Origin: Thainema sp.
GTDB lineage: Bacteria > Cyanobacteriota > Cyanobacteriia > Phormidesmidales > Phormidesmidaceae
Direction: 5' to 3'
Length of the DNA stretch: 62,989 bases
Assembly (NCBI GenBank): GCA_052168235.1
Contig: JBQLZK010000043.1
Span: 1-62,989 of the forward strand
Shown here: positions 2,335-39,340 of the stretch, one piece after another
Numbering within the stretch: position 1 is the stretch's first letter
How the letters are laid out: each line of letters begins with the position of its first letter
The notes under the pieces: model-generated
Told to the model about the DNA's origin: nothing
Database searches by the model: none
The model's input: the letters and a program-made list of their open reading frames with translations, nothing else
Translations under genes and position numbers: made by a program

Positions 2335-3384
2335 GTGAGTCAATCCCAAACGAATCAGTCCTATGACGTTGTGATTGTGGGTGCCGGAGCCGCTGGCATC
2401 GGCTGTGGCGTCGTACTCAAAGACCTGGGGCTGGAGCGCTTCACCATTTTAGAAAGACACCAGGTGGGAGCCTCCTTTAGCCGCTGGCCTGAGGAGATGA
2501 ACTTTATCACGCCGTCATTTCCCAGTCATGGTTTTGGGCTGCTCGATCTGAATGCTGTGACCTTGAAGACCTCGCCTGCGATCGCATTTCGGCGCGAACA
2601 CATCAACGGTAAGCAGTACGCCCTGTACTTACAAACCGTGGCCGATTACTTTGAGCTACCGATTCAGACTGAGGTTGATGTGCAGAGCGTTGACCCCTTG
2701 CCCCAGGGAGGCTTTACCCTATGCACCAGCAGCGGTGAAATTTCTACCCATTTTGTGATTTGGGCTGCCGGAGAGTATCAATATCCCTATTTCAATCCCT
2801 TTCCAGGGGCAGAGCACTGCCTCCACAACTCCCAAGTTCAGTCGTGGAGGGATCTAGAAGGTAACGAATTCCTCATTATCGGCGGTTACGAAAGCGGCAT
2901 AGATGCGGCGGCCAACTTAGTGGCACTGGGGAAGAAAGTCACTGTACTCGATCGCACTGGAGTCTGGTCAGAACCTGACCCCGACCCCAGCGTATCCCTA
3001 TCGCCCTACACCCTGCAGCGTCTGGAATCTGTCTATCGCACAGGTCGCCTAGACATGGTGGGTAACGCATCCATTGAAAAAGTCAAACCTATCCCCGGTG
3101 GCTACGCCGTCTACAGCGAATACCAGAAGTGGATGACAGCGCATCCTCCCATTCTCTGCATCGGTTTCGACACCAGCTTGAAACAGATTGCCTCCCTGTT
3201 CGACTGGTCCGAAGGCTATGCCGCCCTCACAGAAAACGACGAATCTACCCTCACCCCTGGCCTCTTCGTTAGCGGGCCTTCTGTTCGCCACGGGGATTTG
3301 ATTTTCTGCTTTATCTACAAATTCCGCCAGCGCTTTGCCGTCATTGCCAACGCGATCGCCCTATGTGCGTTTGCTGGGTATTGA
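2335..3384 (+). CDS. NAD(P)/FAD-dependent oxidoreductase (pyridine nucleotide-disulfide/CzcO-like), possibly C-terminally truncated
   Basis: GAGAAG FAD motif, GGYESG second Rossmann motif, FCFIYKFRQRF; GTG start. Confidence 0.8.
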   Translation: MSQSQTNQSYDVVIVGAGAAGIGCGVVLKDLGLERFTILERHQVGASFSRWPEEMNFITPSFPSHGFGLLDLNAVTLKTSPAIAFRREHINGKQYALYLQTVADYFELPIQTEVDVQSVDPLPQGGFTLCTSSGEISTHFVIWAAGEYQYPYFNPFPGAEHCLHNSQVQSWRDLEGNEFLIIGGYESGIDAAANLVALGKKVTVLDRTGVWSEPDPDPSVSLSPYTLQRLESVYRTGRLDMVGNASIEKVKPIPGGYAVYSEYQKWMTAHPPILCIGFDTSLKQIASLFDWSEGYAALTENDESTLTPGLFVSGPSVRHGDLIFCFIYKFRQRFAVIANAIALCAFAGY

Positions 3385-3515
3385 CCCCAAAGCGAAACAT
3401 CGTCAGTGGGAACAAATGATTCACAAGCCGGAGTGAGTCTTAAATATCAAATTCTGTGCCGCAATGTGCGTCGTAAAATTTTCGAATTTTGTTAACACCA
3501 TCTACCGTCCACTGC

Positions 3516-3601
3516 CACTAACGGTGAAGTGCAGCGGCGGTCGATAGCCTTTGCTTCCCAATAGATACCTTTTGCTCGTCCGCTGCCACGCAATGTCAGG
3601 T
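3516..3601. mobile_element. attC-like site
   Basis: CTAAC...GCAGCGG / CCGCTGC...GTCAGG imperfect palindrome with unpaired bases, directly before a TA pair. Confidence 0.5.
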
Positions 3602-3636
3602 GTTAACATATAAATATATCAGATGTGATATAGGAT

Positions 3637-3978
3637 ATGGGTAAAGATGATAAACCTCTGGTTTGGCTTCACGGTGAGGTCAAAACACCTCCTTTCAGCC
3701 AAGTTGCCAGACTTGAGGCAGGTTTCTTGTTAAGGCAACTACAGCAGGGTGAAAATCTAGGTCTGCCGCAGTCAAGGCCAATGCCAAGTATAGGAGCCAA
3801 CTGCCATGAACTTCGAATTAGGGATGCGGAGCAAAATTGGAGAATTATCTATCGCATTGATGACGATGCCATCTTAATTTTGGAAGTATTTAGTAAAAAG
3901 ACTCAGACAACTCCCACGAGTATCATCAATATTTGTAAGAAGCGACTAAGCAAGTATGACCACGATAAACGAGGTTAG
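3637..3978 (+). CDS. RelE/ParE-family (Gp49-like) toxin
   Basis: SRPMPSIG, CHELRI, WRIIY and FSKKTQTTP motifs; toxin-first order. Confidence 0.85.
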   Translation: MGKDDKPLVWLHGEVKTPPFSQVARLEAGFLLRQLQQGENLGLPQSRPMPSIGANCHELRIRDAEQNWRIIYRIDDDAILILEVFSKKTQTTPTSIINICKKRLSKYDHDKRG

Positions 3979-29790: not shown

Positions 29791-29930
29791 CACCGCTAAC
29801 AATATATTACTCAAAACCTCACTTAACTGTATTGTCAAAGCACTAAACAGTGCCCTTCCAATCCTTGTCCTTCATGAATGTCTCGGTGTAGTTGTTTTCT
29901 GTGTAAGTGGGTTGGCATAGATAAACGCAA

Positions 29931-30056
29931 AGTGAGATCGCACTTCTTTCTCAACTCAACAGAAATGCGATCGCACCTCCGCTTTTGAGTCATGTTCTAG
30001 AGAAATGCGATCGCACCTCCACCTTCGAGCCTGGCTCTGGGGAGATGCGATCGCAG
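29931..30056. repeat. HIP1-containing tandem repeat, 40-bp period
   Basis: AGAAATGCGATCGCACCTCC at 29961 and 30001, with variants at 30041 and ~29931. Confidence 0.8.
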
Positions 30057-30086
30057 TTTGACTGGGCGATGCACTGCTATAAAAAA

Positions 30087-31757: not shown

Positions 31758-31835
31758 AAACTTCTCAAGGTTAGGAGTCTAGACTGCACGGGCATGGTCT
31801 CCCCCAAACGGTCAGCGGGGTGGAGATCTTACTTA

Positions 31836-31885
31836 GCAGTTTGGCGAACAATCCCATGTTTGGGCGGCACCCATGCGGGTACTTT
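31836..31885. repeat. 50-bp direct repeat, copy 1
   Basis: 46/50 identical to 33502-33551. Confidence 0.9.
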
Positions 31886-31891
31886 ACCTTA

Positions 31892-32320
31892 CTAATCGCT
31901 GCCAACTTGTTTAGGGCGAACTTCAAATTCAGAACGCGCACGGAAGAAGCAAACATCAAACTCAAAGAAGAAATTAGCTTGCCCCAAGATCAAAGGCACA
32001 TTAGGCGCTTGTGTCCAAGCAAATGCGAGATCAACGGTGGGAAACGGATTGACTTGAGCATCAATAACGACTGCACGAGCTTCAAATCGAGCCAGGTTTC
32101 CTGCAAGTACAACCGAAAGTGTTTCGTTCTCCCAGATTAAGCCCAGTTGTAGGCCCAACTCGTAAGGCAGAACATTAACACTTGCACCTGTATCTAGTAA
32201 GCCTTCGGTGTTGAGGGATTGATCATTTAGGCTGAGCGTCAAAGGCAGATAGGCCATTCGATCAACCATGCCAAGACTGCTGTCAATGATTTTGTAGGGA
32301 AATCTTTGAGCGTCAACCAT
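31892..32320 (-). CDS. Retropepsin-like aspartyl protease
   Basis: LLDTGAS and ILGQANFF motifs. Confidence 0.82.
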   Translation of the reverse strand: MVDAQRFPYKIIDSSLGMVDRMAYLPLTLSLNDQSLNTEGLLDTGASVNVLPYELGLQLGLIWENETLSVVLAGNLARFEARAVVIDAQVNPFPTVDLAFAWTQAPNVPLILGQANFFFEFDVCFFRARSEFEVRPKQVGSD

Positions 32321-32531
32321 TCTTCTCTTGCTGCTTTGTCGCCAGAAGATTCATCAAGACATTGGCGGCTTCGGAGCAATTGTAGGGCGACCAGACGGGA
32401 TATTCTTGGTTTGCAACAAAAAAGTTTGCATCTTCTTCTTTGATCAGCTCTGCTGTAAGAAACTGCATTAGCCGAAGCTTGTCAATTTTTGGAAGCTCCT
32501 GGATTTGTGACATGAGTTCAGCTAATGACAT
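32313..32531 (-). CDS. Small hypothetical protein (partner of the aspartyl protease)
   Basis: 72 aa, overlaps the protease start; YPVWSP motif. Confidence 0.7.
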   Translation of the reverse strand: MSLAELMSQIQELPKIDKLRLMQFLTAELIKEEDANFFVANQEYPVWSPYNCSEAANVLMNLLATKQQEKNG

Positions 32532-32568
32532 CTAAGAATCTCCTCGCTTGAGGTTCAATGAAAAATTT

Positions 32569-32742
32569 AGGCTGCTAAGTAATCGCATTGATGTGATAGC
32601 GCTAGCATCTATAGTCTATCAACATCCCAATGAAACGGAGAAGTTAAAGATAGCAGTAGGATGCAAAGCGCGATCGCACTTCTTTCCAACAAAACAAACT
32701 GCGATCGCGCTTTTCTAAATTGCCAAGAATTTTGCGATCGCA
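32569..32742. repeat. Shared leader with HIP1 repeats, copy 1
   Basis: Aligns with 33250-33453. Confidence 0.8.
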
Positions 32743-32797
32743 GGCGAGGCAACGCTGCTAGCGCTGTACTCTATTCAATCTTCAGTTATAGCGTTCC

Positions 32798-32986
32798 CTA
32801 TAGTTCATCACTTTCCTGTAGGATCTGAGCCAGTAATGCTGGAGCAATTCGAAAGTTTGCATTGATTTTCAACTCGGTCAAAAATGCCGCAGGAATATAG
32901 ATTTGACCAAATTGCTGAGGCAGCAGGAACAAATGGTCAACGATCGCCAAATTGAGCAGGGGCGAGGTGTTACTGATGACGGGCAT
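32798..32986 (-). pseudogene. DUF3368 PIN toxin with internal deletion
   Basis: N-terminal VISNTSPL joined directly to a C-terminal-like FRIAPALL; only 62 aa. Confidence 0.7.
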
Positions 32987-33218
32987 AATTTAGGTCTTCT
33001 GCGAGTTCGGTTTCGGAGTAATGCCGAGGGATGTTCCGTTCGCCTAGAAGCTGGCTAAATTGGCGATGGTCAAGGTTGGCAAGTTCGAGGGCTTTGCCGA
33101 AGCTCAATAGTTCTTGGGCATAGAGGGCGATCGCAAGCTCTTTAAGTAGTTCGGCTTCGATACGGTTTTCGGGCAATCGGATGGATTGGATGATGGTTTC
33201 AGGGATAGGTAATTCCAT
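32970..33218 (-). CDS. UPF0175 family antitoxin
   Basis: ELAIALY, LSFGKA and RHYSETELAED motifs. Confidence 0.85.
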   Translation of the reverse strand: MELPIPETIIQSIRLPENRIEAELLKELAIALYAQELLSFGKALELANLDHRQFSQLLGERNIPRHYSETELAEDLNYARHQ

Positions 33219-33249
33219 TGACTAACCTCTTCTTAGACACCCTCTTAGG

Positions 33250-33453
33250 AGGCTGGGTAATCATATTGATGCAATATAGCTAGCATGTATAGTCTATCAA
33301 CTGCCTAATGGATTGACATGAGCATCATAAGCATTATCTCAATGAAATGGAGAAGTTAGAGATAGCAGTAAGATGCAAAGTATAATCGCAATTTCACGAC
33401 TTAATAAAACTGCGATCGCACTTTCCTAAATTGCCAGAAATTTTGCGATCGCA
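33250..33453. repeat. Shared leader with HIP1 repeats, copy 2
   Basis: Aligns with 32569-32742 and has an internal insertion. Confidence 0.8.
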
Positions 33454-33501
33454 CTTCTTTTTTAACTAGATATAACTGAGATCGCACTTTCCTAAATTGA
33501 C

Positions 33502-33551
33502 GCAGTTTGGCGAACAATCCCATGCTTGAGCGGCACCCATATGGGTACTTT
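33502..33551. repeat. 50-bp direct repeat, copy 2
   Basis: 46/50 identical to 31836-31885. Confidence 0.9.
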
Positions 33552-33553
33552 CG

Positions 33554-33631
33554 CTCGAATAGCAGCTTGGGCATCGTCTGCAACCAATTCGGAGCAGTTT
33601 CGACGGTTTATTGTGGATGTGGCGACTTATG
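33554..33631 (+). pseudogene. GNAT gene remnant
   Basis: AAWASSATNSEQFRRFIVDVATY vs AAWASSATDLEQFRRFVLNVTTY at 28893-28970. Confidence 0.85.
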
Positions 33632-33724
33632 CAGTATTATGCGGCTGGTACTTGCCTGACTCACAAGCACAAACCGTAATTCAGCCTGAGTCATTCAGTA
33701 CCGGAACAGGGCAGAGATCTAGTA

Positions 33725-34513
33725 TTAGGATAAATTTTCAGAAGATTCGAGTAGTCTGATTGCATATGCATCAGCTGCTATTTTCACCCAATCCGAATTG
33801 ATCCATAGTAACCAGGTAATAAGCAGAAAGAAACTTACCAGTAAACAAGCAATTGATAGTGGAGGACAGTTAGAGAATTGTAAGTTTGCGCCTGCTTGAA
33901 CTAAGCTGTCGATTTGCCAAGTTGCAAATATACTAAGTAATTCAATTTTATAAACGCACTGTGCTCCAATAAAAAACACACCTATAGATGAAGTTATAAT
34001 TCCAAGGGATTTCATTCCCAGCAAATTTCGTCGAAAACCATAATTGCAATTCTCTTCATAAATCAGGAAAAATTTGCTATGGTCGCGTGTCTTGGAAAGT
34101 AAAAATTGAGTACACGTATCGTATATTTGATCTGCTAAATCTGGATTAGCTAATTCTTCGCTTTCATTTGGCATAGGCTGCTTTGTCAAAGCAAATAACT
34201 TTCTGTGTTGGCGAGCCAAATTTATTTTATTTCGTGTATTACGGTATCGTAGGAAGGAGGTTGTAGGTTTCCCTCCCCAAACAGTGTACAATTCCTCTTC
34301 CTTAGCTTTACCCATATCACGAGCAAGTTGTGCCAAGAGCTTGAGTATTCCGAACCAAGCAAGCAAACTGACTACTCCCCCCCATGACCAAACATGATTT
34401 GGGAAAAATGCAATGATAGTCAATGCGATCGGCAAACTAACAAGTAATGCAGGTGCTAGTCTAGCCTTGCGGTTATAATCATCAAAATTCTTTTCAATAA
34501 AATCTATAACCAT
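33725..34513 (-). CDS. Multi-TM membrane protein, third gene of the MBL/E2-E1-JAB operon
   Basis: Two TM pairs around WGGKPTT and ENCNYGFRRN; AGGAG RBS before 34513. Confidence 0.75.
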   Translation of the reverse strand: MVIDFIEKNFDDYNRKARLAPALLVSLPIALTIIAFFPNHVWSWGGVVSLLAWFGILKLLAQLARDMGKAKEEELYTVWGGKPTTSFLRYRNTRNKINLARQHRKLFALTKQPMPNESEELANPDLADQIYDTCTQFLLSKTRDHSKFFLIYEENCNYGFRRNLLGMKSLGIITSSIGVFFIGAQCVYKIELLSIFATWQIDSLVQAGANLQFSNCPPLSIACLLVSFFLLITWLLWINSDWVKIAADAYAIRLLESSENLS

Positions 34514-34517
34514 ATGT

Positions 34518-36773
34518 TTACTCCTGTATTTGTCGTATTGACCATGTTTCCTGATTTTCACCAACAATGAGCATTACACCTGGCAGTCCATCACGATTGA
34601 GAATCTCAGCAAGATAGCTTAAGAGGCTGATATCATATCCACTCGGTCTAGCTGAGATTCCTGGTGGATGAGAATGCCATTCACCAATGTAGGACACAAT
34701 ATTAGCTGTCCGTGCTTTCGCCATTTTGATCTGTTCCTCAAGACCCTGAACGCCGCGTATAAATCCACTTGAATCTGCTGCACTATCTAAGGGAGCAGAG
34801 AGGATATCGACCACGAAGATTGACTGTAATTTTTGATCAAAATAGCCGAGTAAAACTCCGCCCGTTTCATTTGGAAGATTAGCAGCACGAATTTGCCTAG
34901 CCTTATCCTGCAAGCGAGCGTTCCATACAATGTTCCAACCATTAGCAGCCACAGTTAGGGTTGCAGCCACAGATACTGTGTGAACATTAATTGCCCCAGA
35001 TAGCTGCTCAACATGCCATACCGAGATTACAGCATCGGGGTACTCACATCTGAGCCTAACCTGCCCTGCAAGTGTTGCAGCATGAAGCTGAAGAAGCTCG
35101 ACTGGTATCACACTTGATACATCACGACATCCTGCACCAACCCAAAGATGTCCTTGATGTCCATGCAGATGTTGCTTACCCCAAACATTATTCAAGATGG
35201 CCTCGTAATACTGTGCCTCCAGTCCATCTAATCGCACATTGCGGTCTGAATCTTCTAGAAGTAAAACAGAGCCATGCCCAGAAGGAGTTAGAAAAACAGA
35301 TGCTGATCGCTTAAGGCTCTTAATCGCTAGATCACGCGGCACTGCAAGCGTAGTTGTTGCATCAACTACTAAATCTGCACTTTCAACAGCATTCTTTAAG
35401 TCTGCATTTGACCAATTAGTCACACTATCGACAATCGCAGAAGCTTTTGCATAGCCGTCAAAATAGGTTTCCTCTACTGTTTGTTTGACTGCATTTGCTT
35501 TAAACTGACCAACCTGAAAATGTTTAGCTGTATGTCGGGCTAAATTATGCGGCTTGATGTAATCGGGATCAACAAACATCCAGGTGCCCCACGCCTCTCG
35601 ATACCAAATATCGGCAAGACTACTACCAAGTGCTCCAACACCTGCAAGAACACCAGAGAAATCAGCAGTTTCCGTAGGAATACCCGAAGCCCGTCGTGCA
35701 GTTTCATGAGTGAGAGAGAATACGATCTCTATCGGTTCAACGTCAATAGAGCGCCAAGCATCATTAGAACTCAAATCTTCGCCAAAAGTAGGAATATTGT
35801 AGTAGTTACCATCTGTGCCATCTATTAGCACACCGCATGCTTCACCTAAATTCCCAAGATTAACGTTGAGATAGAAAGCTTTGTATTCATTTCGCTCTAC
35901 AACACTATCGCCACTTCGTTGAACAGGTATCTGAAAAATAAGAAGTGTTTTACTATCAGATACCTTTGGAGTTCCTTCTCCATCCACGCTGTGCTTAATC
36001 TCAGCACAAAGTAAATCGAATAGATTAGTGCCTCGCGCTGAAAATTGCTTGTCAAGTGTTCCTAAATCATATGGAAAAGGTTCAATAAAACCGTGAGCTA
36101 CTGGTTGAAGAGAAATAGCGAGACAGTTTAACTCTATCTGAATATTCTTTTTCTTAGATGCTTGTAAAAAGTATCCTAAAAAGACTCTATCCTCTACTCT
36201 TTTGAGCGTCAGGAACAATTCAGTATCCTGAATTTTTTCGTCAAAATTTGGAGGTAGGATAATCTCGAAGAGACTACGAAAATAGAACGGTTCAACTGGT
36301 TGATCTTCACGATGTAAAGTGCCTCTAGCGGTTTCAGAAAGCCACCATAATACTCGGTTAAGATGGCTTTGAGGAGTCCAAGAACGTTGCACTACTTCCC
36401 AGGGTTCAAAATAAAGGCATAATGACGCAGGTTCATCCTTCCTAACAAGGTTTTGGTGTAAGGTCACGGGGAAATTTTTTCGCAACGCTCGTACCTCAGG
36501 CATTTTGGTTTCTTCAGCACTGAAGATTAATCCAATACGCTCTTGATAGAGAATACCAATTCCGTTTTTGGTAGGAACACCATCATTAGTGCAATCAACA
36601 ACGAGCATTTCCGCAGTGCGTTGCCCGTCGTGAACAAAACATCTTAGCTCAATAAGCTCAAAAAATTTATGGGTAGAACAAACTCTAAAAACCCGACGCG
36701 AGATTGGTATAGTTAAAGCATCTTCAGTGAGTTCAGGAATTAATTCACCAAAGTTGGTATATATTTCTACCAT
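34518..36773 (-). CDS. E2-E1(ThiF)-JAB fusion (Cap2-Cap3-like)
   Basis: E2 LCLY; ThiF GVGALGS, DPDYIKPHNLARH and GAGCR; JAB ETGG and GEWHSHP..S..D. Confidence 0.9.
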   Translation of the reverse strand: MVEIYTNFGELIPELTEDALTIPISRRVFRVCSTHKFFELIELRCFVHDGQRTAEMLVVDCTNDGVPTKNGIGILYQERIGLIFSAEETKMPEVRALRKNFPVTLHQNLVRKDEPASLCLYFEPWEVVQRSWTPQSHLNRVLWWLSETARGTLHREDQPVEPFYFRSLFEIILPPNFDEKIQDTELFLTLKRVEDRVFLGYFLQASKKKNIQIELNCLAISLQPVAHGFIEPFPYDLGTLDKQFSARGTNLFDLLCAEIKHSVDGEGTPKVSDSKTLLIFQIPVQRSGDSVVERNEYKAFYLNVNLGNLGEACGVLIDGTDGNYYNIPTFGEDLSSNDAWRSIDVEPIEIVFSLTHETARRASGIPTETADFSGVLAGVGALGSSLADIWYREAWGTWMFVDPDYIKPHNLARHTAKHFQVGQFKANAVKQTVEETYFDGYAKASAIVDSVTNWSNADLKNAVESADLVVDATTTLAVPRDLAIKSLKRSASVFLTPSGHGSVLLLEDSDRNVRLDGLEAQYYEAILNNVWGKQHLHGHQGHLWVGAGCRDVSSVIPVELLQLHAATLAGQVRLRCEYPDAVISVWHVEQLSGAINVHTVSVAATLTVAANGWNIVWNARLQDKARQIRAANLPNETGGVLLGYFDQKLQSIFVVDILSAPLDSAADSSGFIRGVQGLEEQIKMAKARTANIVSYIGEWHSHPPGISARPSGYDISLLSYLAEILNRDGLPGVMLIVGENQETWSIRQIQE

Positions 36774-37913
36774 CTAGCCTGCCCTTGGTGTTGGAGAAGA
36801 AACAATAATGTTAATTCCAGAATTTCCAGTCATATTCAAACCGACTCCTGCGCTAGTGATATCAAACTCCAAAGGCTGTGGCTTTTGTTCGCTAGGTTCT
36901 TCCATAGTAACAACGAATCTTCGTCCACCAATCTGCTTCAAGTACCGTTCATAGCATTTTCTTGCTTGGATATGCGGTGGAAGTCCCTGTTGGTAGGCAT
37001 CCTTAGTATCAGGGATTGGTTTGCTTGAACTTACAATGTAAGCTCCTGATTGACCGTACATGAGCAGTTCTTCCACTAGAGGAAGAGGAATTGTTTCTTT
37101 CTCACCTTTGTCAGAATTTAGAGCATGATGGCTACAATGATGAGGAATGTTAAACAAATGCCATTTCAATCTATCTTCATTTTTGTGCTCTTTAGTAGTG
37201 TGTACAATATCCTGAAGCACGTCACAGGTTGAGTCTCCAACAGCAAGGTAGTTTGTTTGAATACCCGCAACCTCAAAACGAACCTGGAAAATAAGCGAGG
37301 CATCATTCCGTAAGTCATCTCCCTCATCGACATGCTTGATAAATGGGGAATGACAGAAAAATTCAACGCCATCATTCTCAAGAGAAAATCCTGGAACTGT
37401 TTTTCCAGCATTAACAATTAGCTCAAGACGTGACTCCACAGTCAAGCCATTTTTCTCAAGCCAACTTTTTAGCATTTTAGGTTTTGAGAAAACCTTAATA
37501 CCCTTACCTTTTAGAAGACGATGTCGGGCTTCTTGTCGCCAAAGGACAAACTCAGCTTTTGCTTTCCACTGCTCTGTTGTAGATGTTTCCAGTATCATAG
37601 CGGCTGGGACCCACAACTCATTCACTTTGATTCGTCCATCGCCTTGATATGTAGGATCGTGCCATAGCTCAAAGAACTCGGTACTGTGCAAGATGTGGTC
37701 TAAATCTGCATGAGTAAAAGCTAAAACATCGAAGTAGTCGCGTTTTGCTTCCGCAAGTTCGCTATGTAGTTGGCTTTTGAGATCAATAACAGGATCATCC
37801 TCATTCTCCCCACGATTCAAATGGCGAAAGTCGAACAATAGGCGCTTACCATTGCTTAAAATAATTTGGCTCGTATCACCATTTTGCGCTGGATAGAAAA
37901 TAACTTTGTGCAT
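36774..37913 (-). CDS. Metallo-beta-lactamase-fold hydrolase ending in Gly
   Basis: NGD, THADLDH, GD and PHHCS motifs; C-terminus TPRAG. Confidence 0.88.
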   Translation of the reverse strand: MHKVIFYPAQNGDTSQIILSNGKRLLFDFRHLNRGENEDDPVIDLKSQLHSELAEAKRDYFDVLAFTHADLDHILHSTEFFELWHDPTYQGDGRIKVNELWVPAAMILETSTTEQWKAKAEFVLWRQEARHRLLKGKGIKVFSKPKMLKSWLEKNGLTVESRLELIVNAGKTVPGFSLENDGVEFFCHSPFIKHVDEGDDLRNDASLIFQVRFEVAGIQTNYLAVGDSTCDVLQDIVHTTKEHKNEDRLKWHLFNIPHHCSHHALNSDKGEKETIPLPLVEELLMYGQSGAYIVSSSKPIPDTKDAYQQGLPPHIQARKCYERYLKQIGGRRFVVTMEEPSEQKPQPLEFDITSAGVGLNMTGNSGINIIVSSPTPRAG

Positions 37914-38214
37914 TAGCAGCCTCGCTTGGTATTGAACTTGAATGAGGTTGGAATCTACTGACAGCTTTGATTTACAGATTTCTTAACTTGAGTATCTGAA
38001 GCTGAAGAACAAGGTTGTCCTTGTGAGCTATCTTTACAAATCTACGAAATGTAGGCTTATTCACTGACACACAGCAGATATTGATCTCCAGCATTATCCT
38101 GAAATCCCTTGTTGAGACAGTGATACAATTGAATAAGCAAAAAAAGATTTTGAGAAAGCAGGCTACTTACACGTATGTTAGCGATATTTTTTGAAAAGTG
38201 CAAGTGTAATTGAA

Positions 38215-39060
38215 ATGGTTCGTAAAAAGGAAACAATTACGCTTTCCATCCCACCTGGAACTAAAGAGCAGTTAGAGGCTCTGGCCTATGACTTAGGTAT
38301 TATGTGGGGCGATAAGCCTAGTATTTCAGGGCTAATCACGGCGATCGCCCAACGCCAACTTGAGATTAGAAGTGTAATTACACTTGACTCAAGTCAAAAT
38401 ACTGCAATCAGACAAGCTATAAAACTCTTAGTTGACTCCGGTCGTATTGCCGATGCACAGACTTTAGCCCTTTTCCTCCTAGAACATGGCAATTTAGAGA
38501 CACCTTTACGCCAATCTCTGCTAGAACAAGTTAGTCATCCTACTGAATCATGGCGTAGAGTCATTGACCAACAACTTAAAGCTAAACAGCCTTTTCACCT
38601 GTTTTATGAAGACTCTCAGAACGAACAGATGGAGTTTACCGTTCGCTATGGCGAAATTCGCTTTTGGGAAAAGCGATTCTATCTAGAAGCTTGGTGTGAA
38701 GAAACGCAAGGTAGCTTAAATCTACCTGAACTAATCCATAATCGCTGTTTTCGGTTAGATAGAATTATCAACGTCCTGCCAGCAAGTGGTGATTGGCAAG
38801 ATCAACTTGAGTATATCGAAGTGCAATTAAAAGTATTGGGAAGGTTAGTAAAAGCTTATGAACCTAAACCAGATGATATATCCAATGAGGTAAAGGGCAG
38901 TGCCCGCTACATAGTTAGACGTGTGTCAAATACATTCTGGTTTATTCGAGAGATCTTACGTTATGGGGAAGAATGTCTGGTTTTATCTCCTGCAAGCGTG
39001 CAAAATCAATTAATAAATAAATTGAAGAAGCTTTGTGAGCACTACGAGTTTTCACCATAA
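38215..39060 (+). CDS. RHH-WYL transcriptional regulator
   Basis: ITLSI..WGDKPSIS N-terminus; YLEAWCEE, HNRCFRLDRI and FWFIREILRYG motifs. Confidence 0.9.
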   Translation: MVRKKETITLSIPPGTKEQLEALAYDLGIMWGDKPSISGLITAIAQRQLEIRSVITLDSSQNTAIRQAIKLLVDSGRIADAQTLALFLLEHGNLETPLRQSLLEQVSHPTESWRRVIDQQLKAKQPFHLFYEDSQNEQMEFTVRYGEIRFWEKRFYLEAWCEETQGSLNLPELIHNRCFRLDRIINVLPASGDWQDQLEYIEVQLKVLGRLVKAYEPKPDDISNEVKGSARYIVRRVSNTFWFIREILRYGEECLVLSPASVQNQLINKLKKLCEHYEFSP

Positions 39061-39340
39061 ATTTACAAAAAACAGTGCTTTGCCAAGCTTGTTTTGAGGT
39101 ATGAAAAAATTTTACGCTGACAGTCTACTAGAGAGCCATCTTATCTGGGAAGTCCGTCTTAATCTTGTCAGTGTGATAGGTATTGCTTGATTCAGAGCCA
39201 ACAATAAATTGGGCACGGAGATGTTTCACAAGCATATTGGGTAAGCCTTCGCTCCCCCAGGCGCAAGCAACTTTTTCAGAACCTTCTGTTTAGCATTATG
39301 CTGCCACCAAACGACAGCACAATACCTTTTGCTGCAACTA

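Follow-up and report, generated by a model that had tools for sequence, protein, structure and literature searches.

An apparently acquired 6A-MBL defence cassette of Thainema sp. and its third gene, encoding a four-helix membrane protein

A stretch of 62,989 nucleotides from the cyanobacterium Thainema sp. (assembly GCA_052168235.1, contig JBQLZK010000043.1, positions 1–62,989, forward strand; hereafter the window) carries a four-gene cassette at positions 33721–39071, encoding a divergent WYL regulator, a ComEC-like enzyme of the metallo-β-lactamase (MBL) fold, a fusion of E2, E1 and JAB domains, and a four-helix membrane protein that we refer to as TM1. The best overall explanation, to which we give somewhat better than even chances, is that this is an acquired and self-contained 6A-MBL defence cassette with the WYL regulator and TM1 as additions to its core, and with TM1 as its membrane-acting arm. 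The locus itself is no discovery, its core being a catalogued defence system, and it is the third gene of the operon that is the part worth keeping; with its small size (5.35 kb) and its own regulation, the cassette is a candidate for work at the bench.

A catalogued core of MBL and ligase

The two core genes are adjacent and co-oriented on the reverse strand. The MBL-fold enzyme, of 379 aa and with an HxDxDH motif, is encoded at 36774–37913, and its open reading frame (ORF) ends in the residues SSPTPRAG according to the ORF list; its stop codon occupies 36774–36776, and the 751-aa fusion protein, Cap2_3 (34518–36773), starts at 36773, the base directly after it. This order, MBL and then ligase, is common to all of the loci that contain both genes. 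Pfam recognizes three domains in the fusion, Prok-E2_A (residues 49–176, approximately 36246–36629), ThiF (residues 375–482, with the core at approximately 35328–35651) and Prok-JAB (residues 619–744, approximately 34542–34919), and the fusion also matches the E1-E2 and the JAB (Cap3) models of PADLOC. A preliminary description made from the sequence alone had placed an MBL ending in TPRAG directly against an E2-E1-JAB fusion with intact catalytic motifs, and the ORF coordinates, the Pfam domains and the conservation of the motifs all agree with it: in a 22-sequence alignment C119, C549, E636, H700, H702 and D714 are invariant, and the E2 signature (H106/N108/C119), the Rossmann glycines (G378/G380/G383) and S711 of the JAB domain are either invariant or at least 90% conserved. 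The catalytic roles of these residues, and of those in the MBL site, are assigned by analogy with E1, E2 and JAB enzymes.

NCBIfam has an equivalog for each of these proteins. The MBL matches NF058524 ('anti-phage 6A-MBL system MBL-fold protein') over its full length (1–346 of 346) with 390.3 bits against a cut-off of 220, and the fusion matches NF058523 ('6A-MBL system cap2_3 protein') over positions 1–665 of 665 with 684.5 bits against a cut-off of 320. Because both pass the curated cut-offs, the core MBL and fusion can be assigned from their sequences, with very little doubt, to the known and catalogued 6A-MBL anti-phage type, and the earlier suggestion of a 6A-MBL-like locus stands.

6A-MBL is the operon that Iyer, Burroughs and Aravind 2006 classed as type 6a and describe as 'usually two genes' (PMC1779556); citing papers report that van den Berg et al. 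2024 tested it in Pseudomonas aeruginosa, and it is from such papers that protection against phage is known, for a P. aeruginosa system. The window resembles such loci in having an MBL-fold protein and an E2-E1-JAB fusion that are adjacent and co-oriented, in the conserved glycine tail at the C-terminus of the MBL, and in the divergent WYL regulator, which is also present on the Escherichia coli plasmid pSE11-2. It differs in that the known system is described as two genes and the NCBIfam models cover two proteins, neither of which TM1 matches, whereas the mobile unit in the window includes a third, translationally coupled gene for a membrane protein.

A glycine tail that accompanies the ligase

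Alignment of 53 MBL sequences shows that H68, D70, D72 and H73 (the HxDxDH motif), D227, H258, H259 and G379 are invariant. As a single sequence the window MBL matches no solved structure, whereas its profile matches the β-lactamase-like domains of ComEC only, namely 9ic4 (E 1.9e-7) and 30bt. An AlphaFold model has a predicted local distance difference test score (pLDDT) of 91.9 overall, and its best fold match is again 9ic4 (E 1.6e-13, TM-score 0.71), followed by the pneumococcal phosphorylcholine esterase. Residues 364–379, which end in PRAG and are encoded at 36777–36824 on the reverse strand, have a pLDDT below 50 and form a tail that is disordered as modelled. The nearest PADLOC models are RTasMBL, LmuA and Avs1a. 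The MBLs that are paired with trypsin-like proteases in the Hachiman, AVAST, Lamassu and DRT systems are described as latent double-stranded DNA nucleases (PMC12799240; bioRxiv 10.1101/2025.11.14.688446), and since the nearest models belong to systems with such MBLs, DNase activity of the window MBL is likely by analogy.

Conservation of the terminal glycine had been named beforehand as a point on which the idea of conjugation could fail. We surveyed the tails in 71 MBL rows from 81 loci, and the motif ..[PRK]AG is kept in 69 of them, at the exact C-terminus in 43 and followed by a further 2–7 residues in 26; the remaining two rows are frameshifted fragments. The 26 MBLs with extra residues resemble pro-forms that would need trimming by a peptidase. 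The plasmid copies from Nostoc and E. coli have the PRAG tail, and all four of the examined MBLs that partner TM1 without an E2-E1-JAB ligase lack it. Conjugation through Gly379 is thus the best inference, because the tail tracks the presence of the ligase, because the E2, E1 and JAB residues are invariant, and because conjugation has been stated for MBL pathways: Ye et al. 2024 write that Type II CBASS (cyclic-oligonucleotide-based antiphage signalling system), Pycsar and MBL pathways conjugate their own enzymes to unknown targets.

TM1 belongs to a large unmodelled family

The preliminary description had noted a hydrophobic gene with four membrane segments after the fusion, which is indeed present, although its start has been corrected. 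The likely start of TM1 is the ATG at 34513 and not the TTG at 34567; it lies 4 nt past the stop of the fusion and is preceded by AGGAG, giving a gene at 33725–34513 on the reverse strand. The product is of 262 aa, as are its orthologues and most of its homologues, which share the same start. It contains four hydrophobic segments and its model is all-helical (pLDDT 93, predicted TM-score 0.86), with a conserved soluble domain of about 100 aa, probably cytoplasmic, between helices 2 and 3. The best-conserved residues (R18, P83, R162, N163 and Y158–F160) lie in or next to this domain and not in the membrane helices, and in a 62-sequence alignment of TM1 no lysine is invariant or 90% conserved.

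TM1 matches none of the models in Pfam, NCBIfam or PADLOC. A Foldseek search of its structure against the PDB returns nothing at E ≤0.001, the best E being 0.34, and includes weak rows for the stator proteins MotA, PomA and TolQ (probability 0.35, TM-score 0.24–0.27, E ≥0.5); the best Z in the VIA wide search, 6.3, falls on generic helical hairpins, and a search of Atlas gives only clusters labelled 'hypothetical protein'. Nonetheless, a profile search of 1.84 billion representatives recovers 3,511 representative clusters at E ≤0.001 and 1,565 at ≤1e-30. No fused forms of TM1 score among proteins of 460–2000 aa, and two longer representatives, of 406 and 320 aa, contain no Pfam domain. TM1 is therefore a large unmodelled family, and, as described below, it is regularly paired with ComEC-like MBL enzymes, whether or not the ubiquitin-like ligase is there as well.

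Linkage of the membrane gene, which the preliminary description had proposed to check, holds in the close relatives: TM1 is kept in filamentous cyanobacterium CCP2 (L001), in Nostoc favosum (L002) and on a Nostoc linckia plasmid (L090), with 65–82% identity. Against these three orthologues the ratio of nonsynonymous to synonymous substitution rates (dN/dS) is 0.11–0.17 for TM1, 0.05–0.12 for the MBL and 0.13–0.19 for the ligase. We considered whether TM1 might be a decaying remnant, and the dN/dS values rule this out.

Alternative third genes in 6A-MBL loci

A scan with the 22-sequence ligase alignment yielded 79 metagenomic loci (31–49% identity), in which ORFs were called and searched with custom hidden Markov models. 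TM1 is adjacent to the core genes and co-oriented with them in 21 loci, 16 of them with TM1 downstream of the ligase and five with it upstream of the MBL; counting another locus, in which TM1 is 2.5 kb away, 22 bear it. A patatin phospholipase (PF01734) retaining the SGGGxRA, VSGGS and DGGxYDN motifs lies directly downstream of the ligase in 25, and 10 have on the same strand, within 900 bp, a protein of an unrelated four-helix family of 207–233 aa, here called TM2. There is no locus with both TM1 and a patatin adjacent. The other 23 loci have none of these three families, and in 12 of them at least 900 bp of flank is available on both sides; several of the 12 carry other small membrane proteins downstream, such as L026, with a PDC-M48A-like protein, and L064. 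The membrane gene had been described as an extra at the Thainema locus, and this view has to be revised, as several genes can take the third place in such loci and TM1 is but one of them.

The distribution of third genes was compared with a FastTree phylogeny of 69 distinct ligases, ten loci being left out because the ligase was truncated or identical to that of another row. The third-gene label requires at least 17 changes on this tree, compared with a mean of 33.6 when labels are shuffled, and none of 200 shuffles is as low. The clade containing the window, L001 and L002 is sister to a patatin clade, with a Shimodaira–Hasegawa (SH)-like support of 95. A search for a sensor domain common to the alternatives found none, comparison of the TM1 profile with the patatin and TM2 alignments by hhalign giving a probability of no more than 0.4%. 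The alternation of TM1 and patatin suggests that a system described as two genes has a modular layout like that of CBASS, and it lets one ask what conjugation of the MBL controls: degradation of DNA, damage to the membrane, or both.

TM2 has no match in Pfam, NCBIfam or PADLOC. It is adjacent in L033, L036, L037, L038, L040 and L043 and one gene away in L041, L049, L052 and L055; in L041 and L055 an MBL resembling PDC-M48B lies between the ligase and TM2. A membrane protein matching the PADLOC model PDC-M48A is encoded directly downstream of the ligase in L012 (4101–5469) and L026 (7260–7835), and in L012, one of the 11 loci with shorter flanks, it is followed by a PDC-M48B MBL that is 60% identical to the MBL of a Bacillus cereus plasmid.

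TM1 beside MBLs without a ligase

In a tblastn search, TM1 was found on 88 plasmid records, including 40 from Clostridium, 15 from Acinetobacter, and six each from Rhodococcus and Curtobacterium, and we examined its context in six. TM1 directly follows an MBL gene on the Rhodococcus, B. cereus and Curtobacterium plasmids, with no ligase annotated within 5 kb, and these three MBLs match PADLOC PDC-M48B (E 3.5e-57, 5.5e-150 and 8.3e-63, respectively). On the Clostridium perfringens plasmid pCP-TS1, TM1 precedes an MBL that is 63% identical to the B. cereus one, so that an MBL adjoins TM1 in all four of the ligase-less plasmid contexts. A truncated TM1 copy stands alone on a Staphylococcus plasmid. 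On the Acinetobacter baumannii plasmid NZ_CP027245.2 (L096, 4065–5762) a TM1-like gene is co-oriented directly behind a WYL gene and lies opposite a diverged MBL-ligase pair, whose MBL ends in PMPHGAS and not in PRAG.

These pairs invite comparison with PDC-M48, in which A is a small membrane protein and B an MBL-fold protein. The likeness is that plasmid homologues of TM1 pair with MBLs of the PDC-M48B type. However, in PADLOC searches the window MBL does not match PDC-M48B and TM1 does not match PDC-M48A; moreover, PDC-M48 has no ligase and its MBLs have no PRAG tail. We regard PDC-M48 as a candidate system only, since the term was not found in the literature searched. A second MBL resembling PDC-M48B stands beside TM1 in seven of the 22 TM1-bearing metagenomic loci and is absent from the other 15; the window contains neither a second MBL nor a remnant of one.

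Evidence for acquisition of the cassette

The preliminary description had called the block AT-rich and free of HIP1 in the three operon genes, and had proposed recent horizontal acquisition. The cassette has a G+C content of 0.41 compared with 0.489 in the rest of the window, and at third codon positions (GC3) its four genes have 0.31–0.35, whereas the flanking ppsA, gap and GMC-oxidoreductase genes have 0.56–0.61. HIP1 (GCGATCGC) occurs at 59 sites in the window compared with about one in shuffled sequences. There are none in the three operon genes, where 4.2 are expected (Poisson P 0.015), and one in the whole cassette, where 5.4 are expected (P 0.03); the longest HIP1-free gap of the window is at 33453–38340.

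Comparison by blastn gives a single block in which window positions 33721–39071 align with 3703–9053 of L001, at 83% identity over 5359 nt, and no homology between the two sequences outside the cassette. Acquisition of the cassette as a four-gene unit by horizontal transfer is well supported by these sequence comparisons, because of the GC3 values, the depletion of HIP1 and the presence of an 83%-identical cassette within unrelated flanks. The AT-rich character, the lack of HIP1 and the acquisition itself are thus all borne out; that it was recent rests on the unameliorated GC3.

Neither the Cap2_3 ligase family nor the TM1 family was found in any of 400 other sampled cyanobacterial genomes. 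Nostoc favosum (L002) and the Nostoc linckia conjugative plasmid2 (L090) have the three operon genes, without a WYL gene of the window type. Conjugative plasmids are among the carriers of the system. By tblastn the ligase is found on 254 plasmid records, including 166 from Klebsiella and 26 from Escherichia, and we note that the form with two genes plus WYL is very common on enterobacterial plasmids. In L001 the cassette adjoins a CagX/VirB9-like conjugal transfer gene (3007–3711), which suggests that this copy is carried on a conjugative element. A search for insertion scars found no direct repeats flanking the cassette in the window; in two genomes of the same family ppsA is present (75% and 59% identity) and the GMC oxidoreductase gene was not found, so that an empty site is not definable from them.

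The divergent regulator

The ORF of the regulator is listed at 38191–39060 on the forward strand, with 289 aa and a TTG start, but to judge from the L001 orthologue, which is 90% identical, the gene probably starts at the ATG at 38215 and thus occupies 38215–39060. The protein matches Pfam WCX (E 7e-7) and PADLOC WYL (E 1.7e-14), with a Pfam WYL score below the cut-off (19.7 compared with 21.8 bits). Searches with its N-terminus found no Pfam match and no solved relative, and no DNA-binding domain or helix-turn-helix (HTH) was recognized. It had been labelled a divergent ribbon-helix-helix (RHH)-WYL protein and linked to regulators of cyanobacterial CRISPR loci; the WYL and WCX domains and the divergent position hold, whereas the RHH part finds no support in these searches, leaving the PADLOC WYL models alone behind the CRISPR link.

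L001 is the only one of the 81 other loci in which a homologue of this protein is detectable, the WYL proteins of the other loci being too diverged for jackhmmer. Pfam models were run on the 77 ORFs upstream of the operon at 50 loci that remained from 88 candidates once the duplicate loci L011 and L019, together with seven ORFs that were short or open-ended, had been removed. Thirteen of the 50 loci have a divergent WYL protein, and five have a Peptidase_M78 protein with or without an HTH, which is CapH/CapP-like. As the plasmid pSE11-2 likewise carries WYL, MBL and ligase genes, with no third gene, a divergent WYL regulator is ordinary for 6A-MBL. In the Nostoc copies the WYL gene is replaced by genes for a co-oriented HATPase_c-domain protein and a protein of about 200 aa upstream of the MBL (L002 3206–4063 and L090 2225–3073), and these may be an alternative regulator pair.

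The divergent intergenic region at 37914–38214, which presumably contains the promoters and operator, aligns with that of L001 with conserved blocks, two sequences being compared. It contains short inverted repeats, unproven as an operator, and scans of it for promoters and terminators gave nothing above chance. CapW-type control of immune operons has been described (PMC13373217), and the window protein resembles the CapW/BrxR-type regulators in its WYL and WCX domains and in its divergent position upstream of an immune operon; it differs in that CapW has an N-terminal winged HTH, and none is detected here.

A proposed mechanism and the role of TM1

We propose that the WYL-WCX protein would repress the operon and release it upon a stress signal, after the manner of the CapW/BrxR class. 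The MBL would be a metal-dependent phosphodiesterase of the ComEC-like kind, in all likelihood a DNase in latent form, with a disordered tail ending in Pro-Arg-Ala-Gly. The E2-E1-JAB fusion is predicted to adenylate the terminal glycine and to pass the MBL through thioesters on Cys549 of E1 and Cys119 of E2 for ligation to lysines of its targets; the JAB domain would reverse this conjugation, and in relatives with 2–7 extra residues it would first trim the tail. TM1, translationally coupled to the ligase gene, would be a functional partner of the MBL and not a bystander, acting as an abortive-infection effector or co-effector that is switched on once the MBL module has been activated.

These steps differ in their strength. 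From its conservation and linkage, TM1 is probably a functional part of the system, and the evidence shows a functional tie of TM1 to ComEC-like MBLs without the direction of that tie. That it is the effector we prefer only tentatively, and do so because it alternates with patatin in the same slot. A number of considerations weigh against the account given here. Twelve of the 79 loci lack the three third-gene families despite flanks of at least 900 bp on both sides, and pSE11-2 has no third gene; with two-gene loci in existence ('usually two genes', Iyer et al. 2006), MBL and ligase may suffice and a further effector would be unnecessary. Relatives of the window MBL are themselves described as effectors (PMC12799240; bioRxiv 10.1101/2025.11.14.688446), and in the ligase-less pairs of MBL and TM1 one protein must sense infection, which favours TM1 as a sensor. 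At the seven of 22 loci with a second MBL, TM1 may be part of a separate two-gene system next door. By hhalign the TM1 protein shows no similarity to patatin and TM2, and it has no recognizable fold, so that its structure gives no sign of a pore. The ligase tree is a FastTree phylogeny with SH-like support only, and the significance of the HIP1 gap is no more than modest (P 0.015–0.03). For the window copy, we infer conjugation, nuclease activity, regulation and anti-phage activity.

An alternative that we consider possible, though somewhat unlikely, is that TM1 is a membrane sensor or anchor controlling a ComEC-like DNase, either by detecting a change at the membrane that accompanies infection or by keeping the MBL nuclease in that place, in which case the DNase would be the sole killing or clearing activity and the ligase would tune it. 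The existence of ligase-less MBL and TM1 pairs, together with the effector role of related MBLs, favours this: a sensor has to be present in the modules on the Rhodococcus, Bacillus, Curtobacterium and Clostridium plasmids, and similar MBLs with links to defence are reported to be nuclease effectors. Two-gene 6A-MBL loci likewise speak for it. The position of the top-conserved TM1 residues, in or beside the soluble domain and away from the membrane helices, is consistent with it, as is ComEC itself, described as coupling the same nuclease fold to a membrane channel (PMC8579336, PMC12455585). The weak resemblance to MotA, PomA and TolQ could be cited in its support, but those rows are far from significant; and the patatin, a typical effector, sits in the same slot at 25 of the 79 loci, and on the ligase tree the two take turns, which argues for TM1 as an effector. 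We think it improbable that TM1 is instead the substrate of the ligase, with Gly379 of the MBL joined to a cytoplasmic lysine of TM1 so as to tether the enzyme to the membrane or to open TM1. The targets of MBL pathways are stated to be unknown (Ye et al. 2024), TM1 and the ligase gene are coupled in translation, and the soluble domain of TM1 is rich in lysine and arginine; however, no lysine reaches 90% conservation in the TM1 alignment, TM1 pairs with MBLs that have neither a ligase nor a PRAG tail, and as unrelated proteins fill the slot in sister loci, each of them would need to have evolved anew as a specific target. Slightly less probable still is that TM1 lies outside the 6A-MBL system, as the leftover half of an adjacent PDC-M48-like pair of MBL and membrane protein that has lost its own MBL. 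Defence genes cluster in islands, a PDC-M48A/B pair adjoins another 6A-MBL locus (L012), and a second, PDC-M48B-like MBL accompanies TM1 at a minority of its loci (7 of 22). But at most of them it does not, and the window holds no trace of such a gene. TM1 itself is intact, begins 4 nt after the stop of the ligase and is under as much purifying selection as its neighbours; of the four cyanobacterial cassettes that we examined, namely those of the window, L001, L002 and L090, none lacks it.

The proposed mechanism has parallels in two groups of defence systems. As in Type II CBASS, the E2-E1 ligase and the JAB peptidase would work on the C-terminal end of an enzyme that belongs to the system (Ye et al. 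2024); both would have swappable membrane effectors, including patatin, and both have CapW-type WYL regulators. The window cassette differs in having no nucleotidyltransferase, in having Cap2 and Cap3 fused in one chain, and in that the conjugated enzyme would be a ComEC-like hydrolase, with no second messenger known or implied. Type I CBASS is a ligase-less 'minimal' form relative to type II, much as the MBL and TM1 pairs are relative to 6A-MBL. Identity with CBASS was considered and rejected, as none of the four cassette proteins matches a cyclase (CD-NTase) model in Pfam, PADLOC or NCBIfam. The MBL nucleases of Hachiman, AVAST, Lamassu and DRT systems, such as HamM and VcMBL, share the ComEC-like fold and include the nearest PADLOC models; they too are described as latent enzymes licensed post-translationally by the product of an adjacent gene, although there by internal cleavage with a trypsin-like protease and here, as predicted, by an E2-E1-JAB ligase and peptidase acting on a C-terminal glycine tail.

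The CBASS parallel can be taken further by analogy. Both 6A-MBL systems and the ligase-less pairs of MBL and TM1 would then consist of an enzyme upstream and of interchangeable membrane effectors after it. The MBL might be an activating enzyme and not a killing nuclease, switching on TM1 or the patatin through a product derived from nucleic acid or through ligation, with the E2-E1-JAB fusion priming the MBL as Cap2 and Cap3 prime the cyclase. We regard this as unlikely, but if it were true TM1 would be the founding member of a wholly unannotated membrane-effector family of about 3,500 clusters.

The neighbourhood of the cassette

The region from the GMC oxidoreductase gene to the cassette, at 31770–33600, contains two small gene pairs of toxin-antitoxin-like character (31892–32531 and 32798–33218). 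They are separated by repeated intergenic units (32567–32743 compared with 33245–33454, and 31836–31885 compared with 33502–33551, the latter 92% identical), and these units contain HIP1 sites. Just downstream of the GMC oxidoreductase gene, a short tandem or inverted repeat at 29929–30058 has HIP1 sites at 29967, 30007 and 30047, with a spacing of 40 nt.

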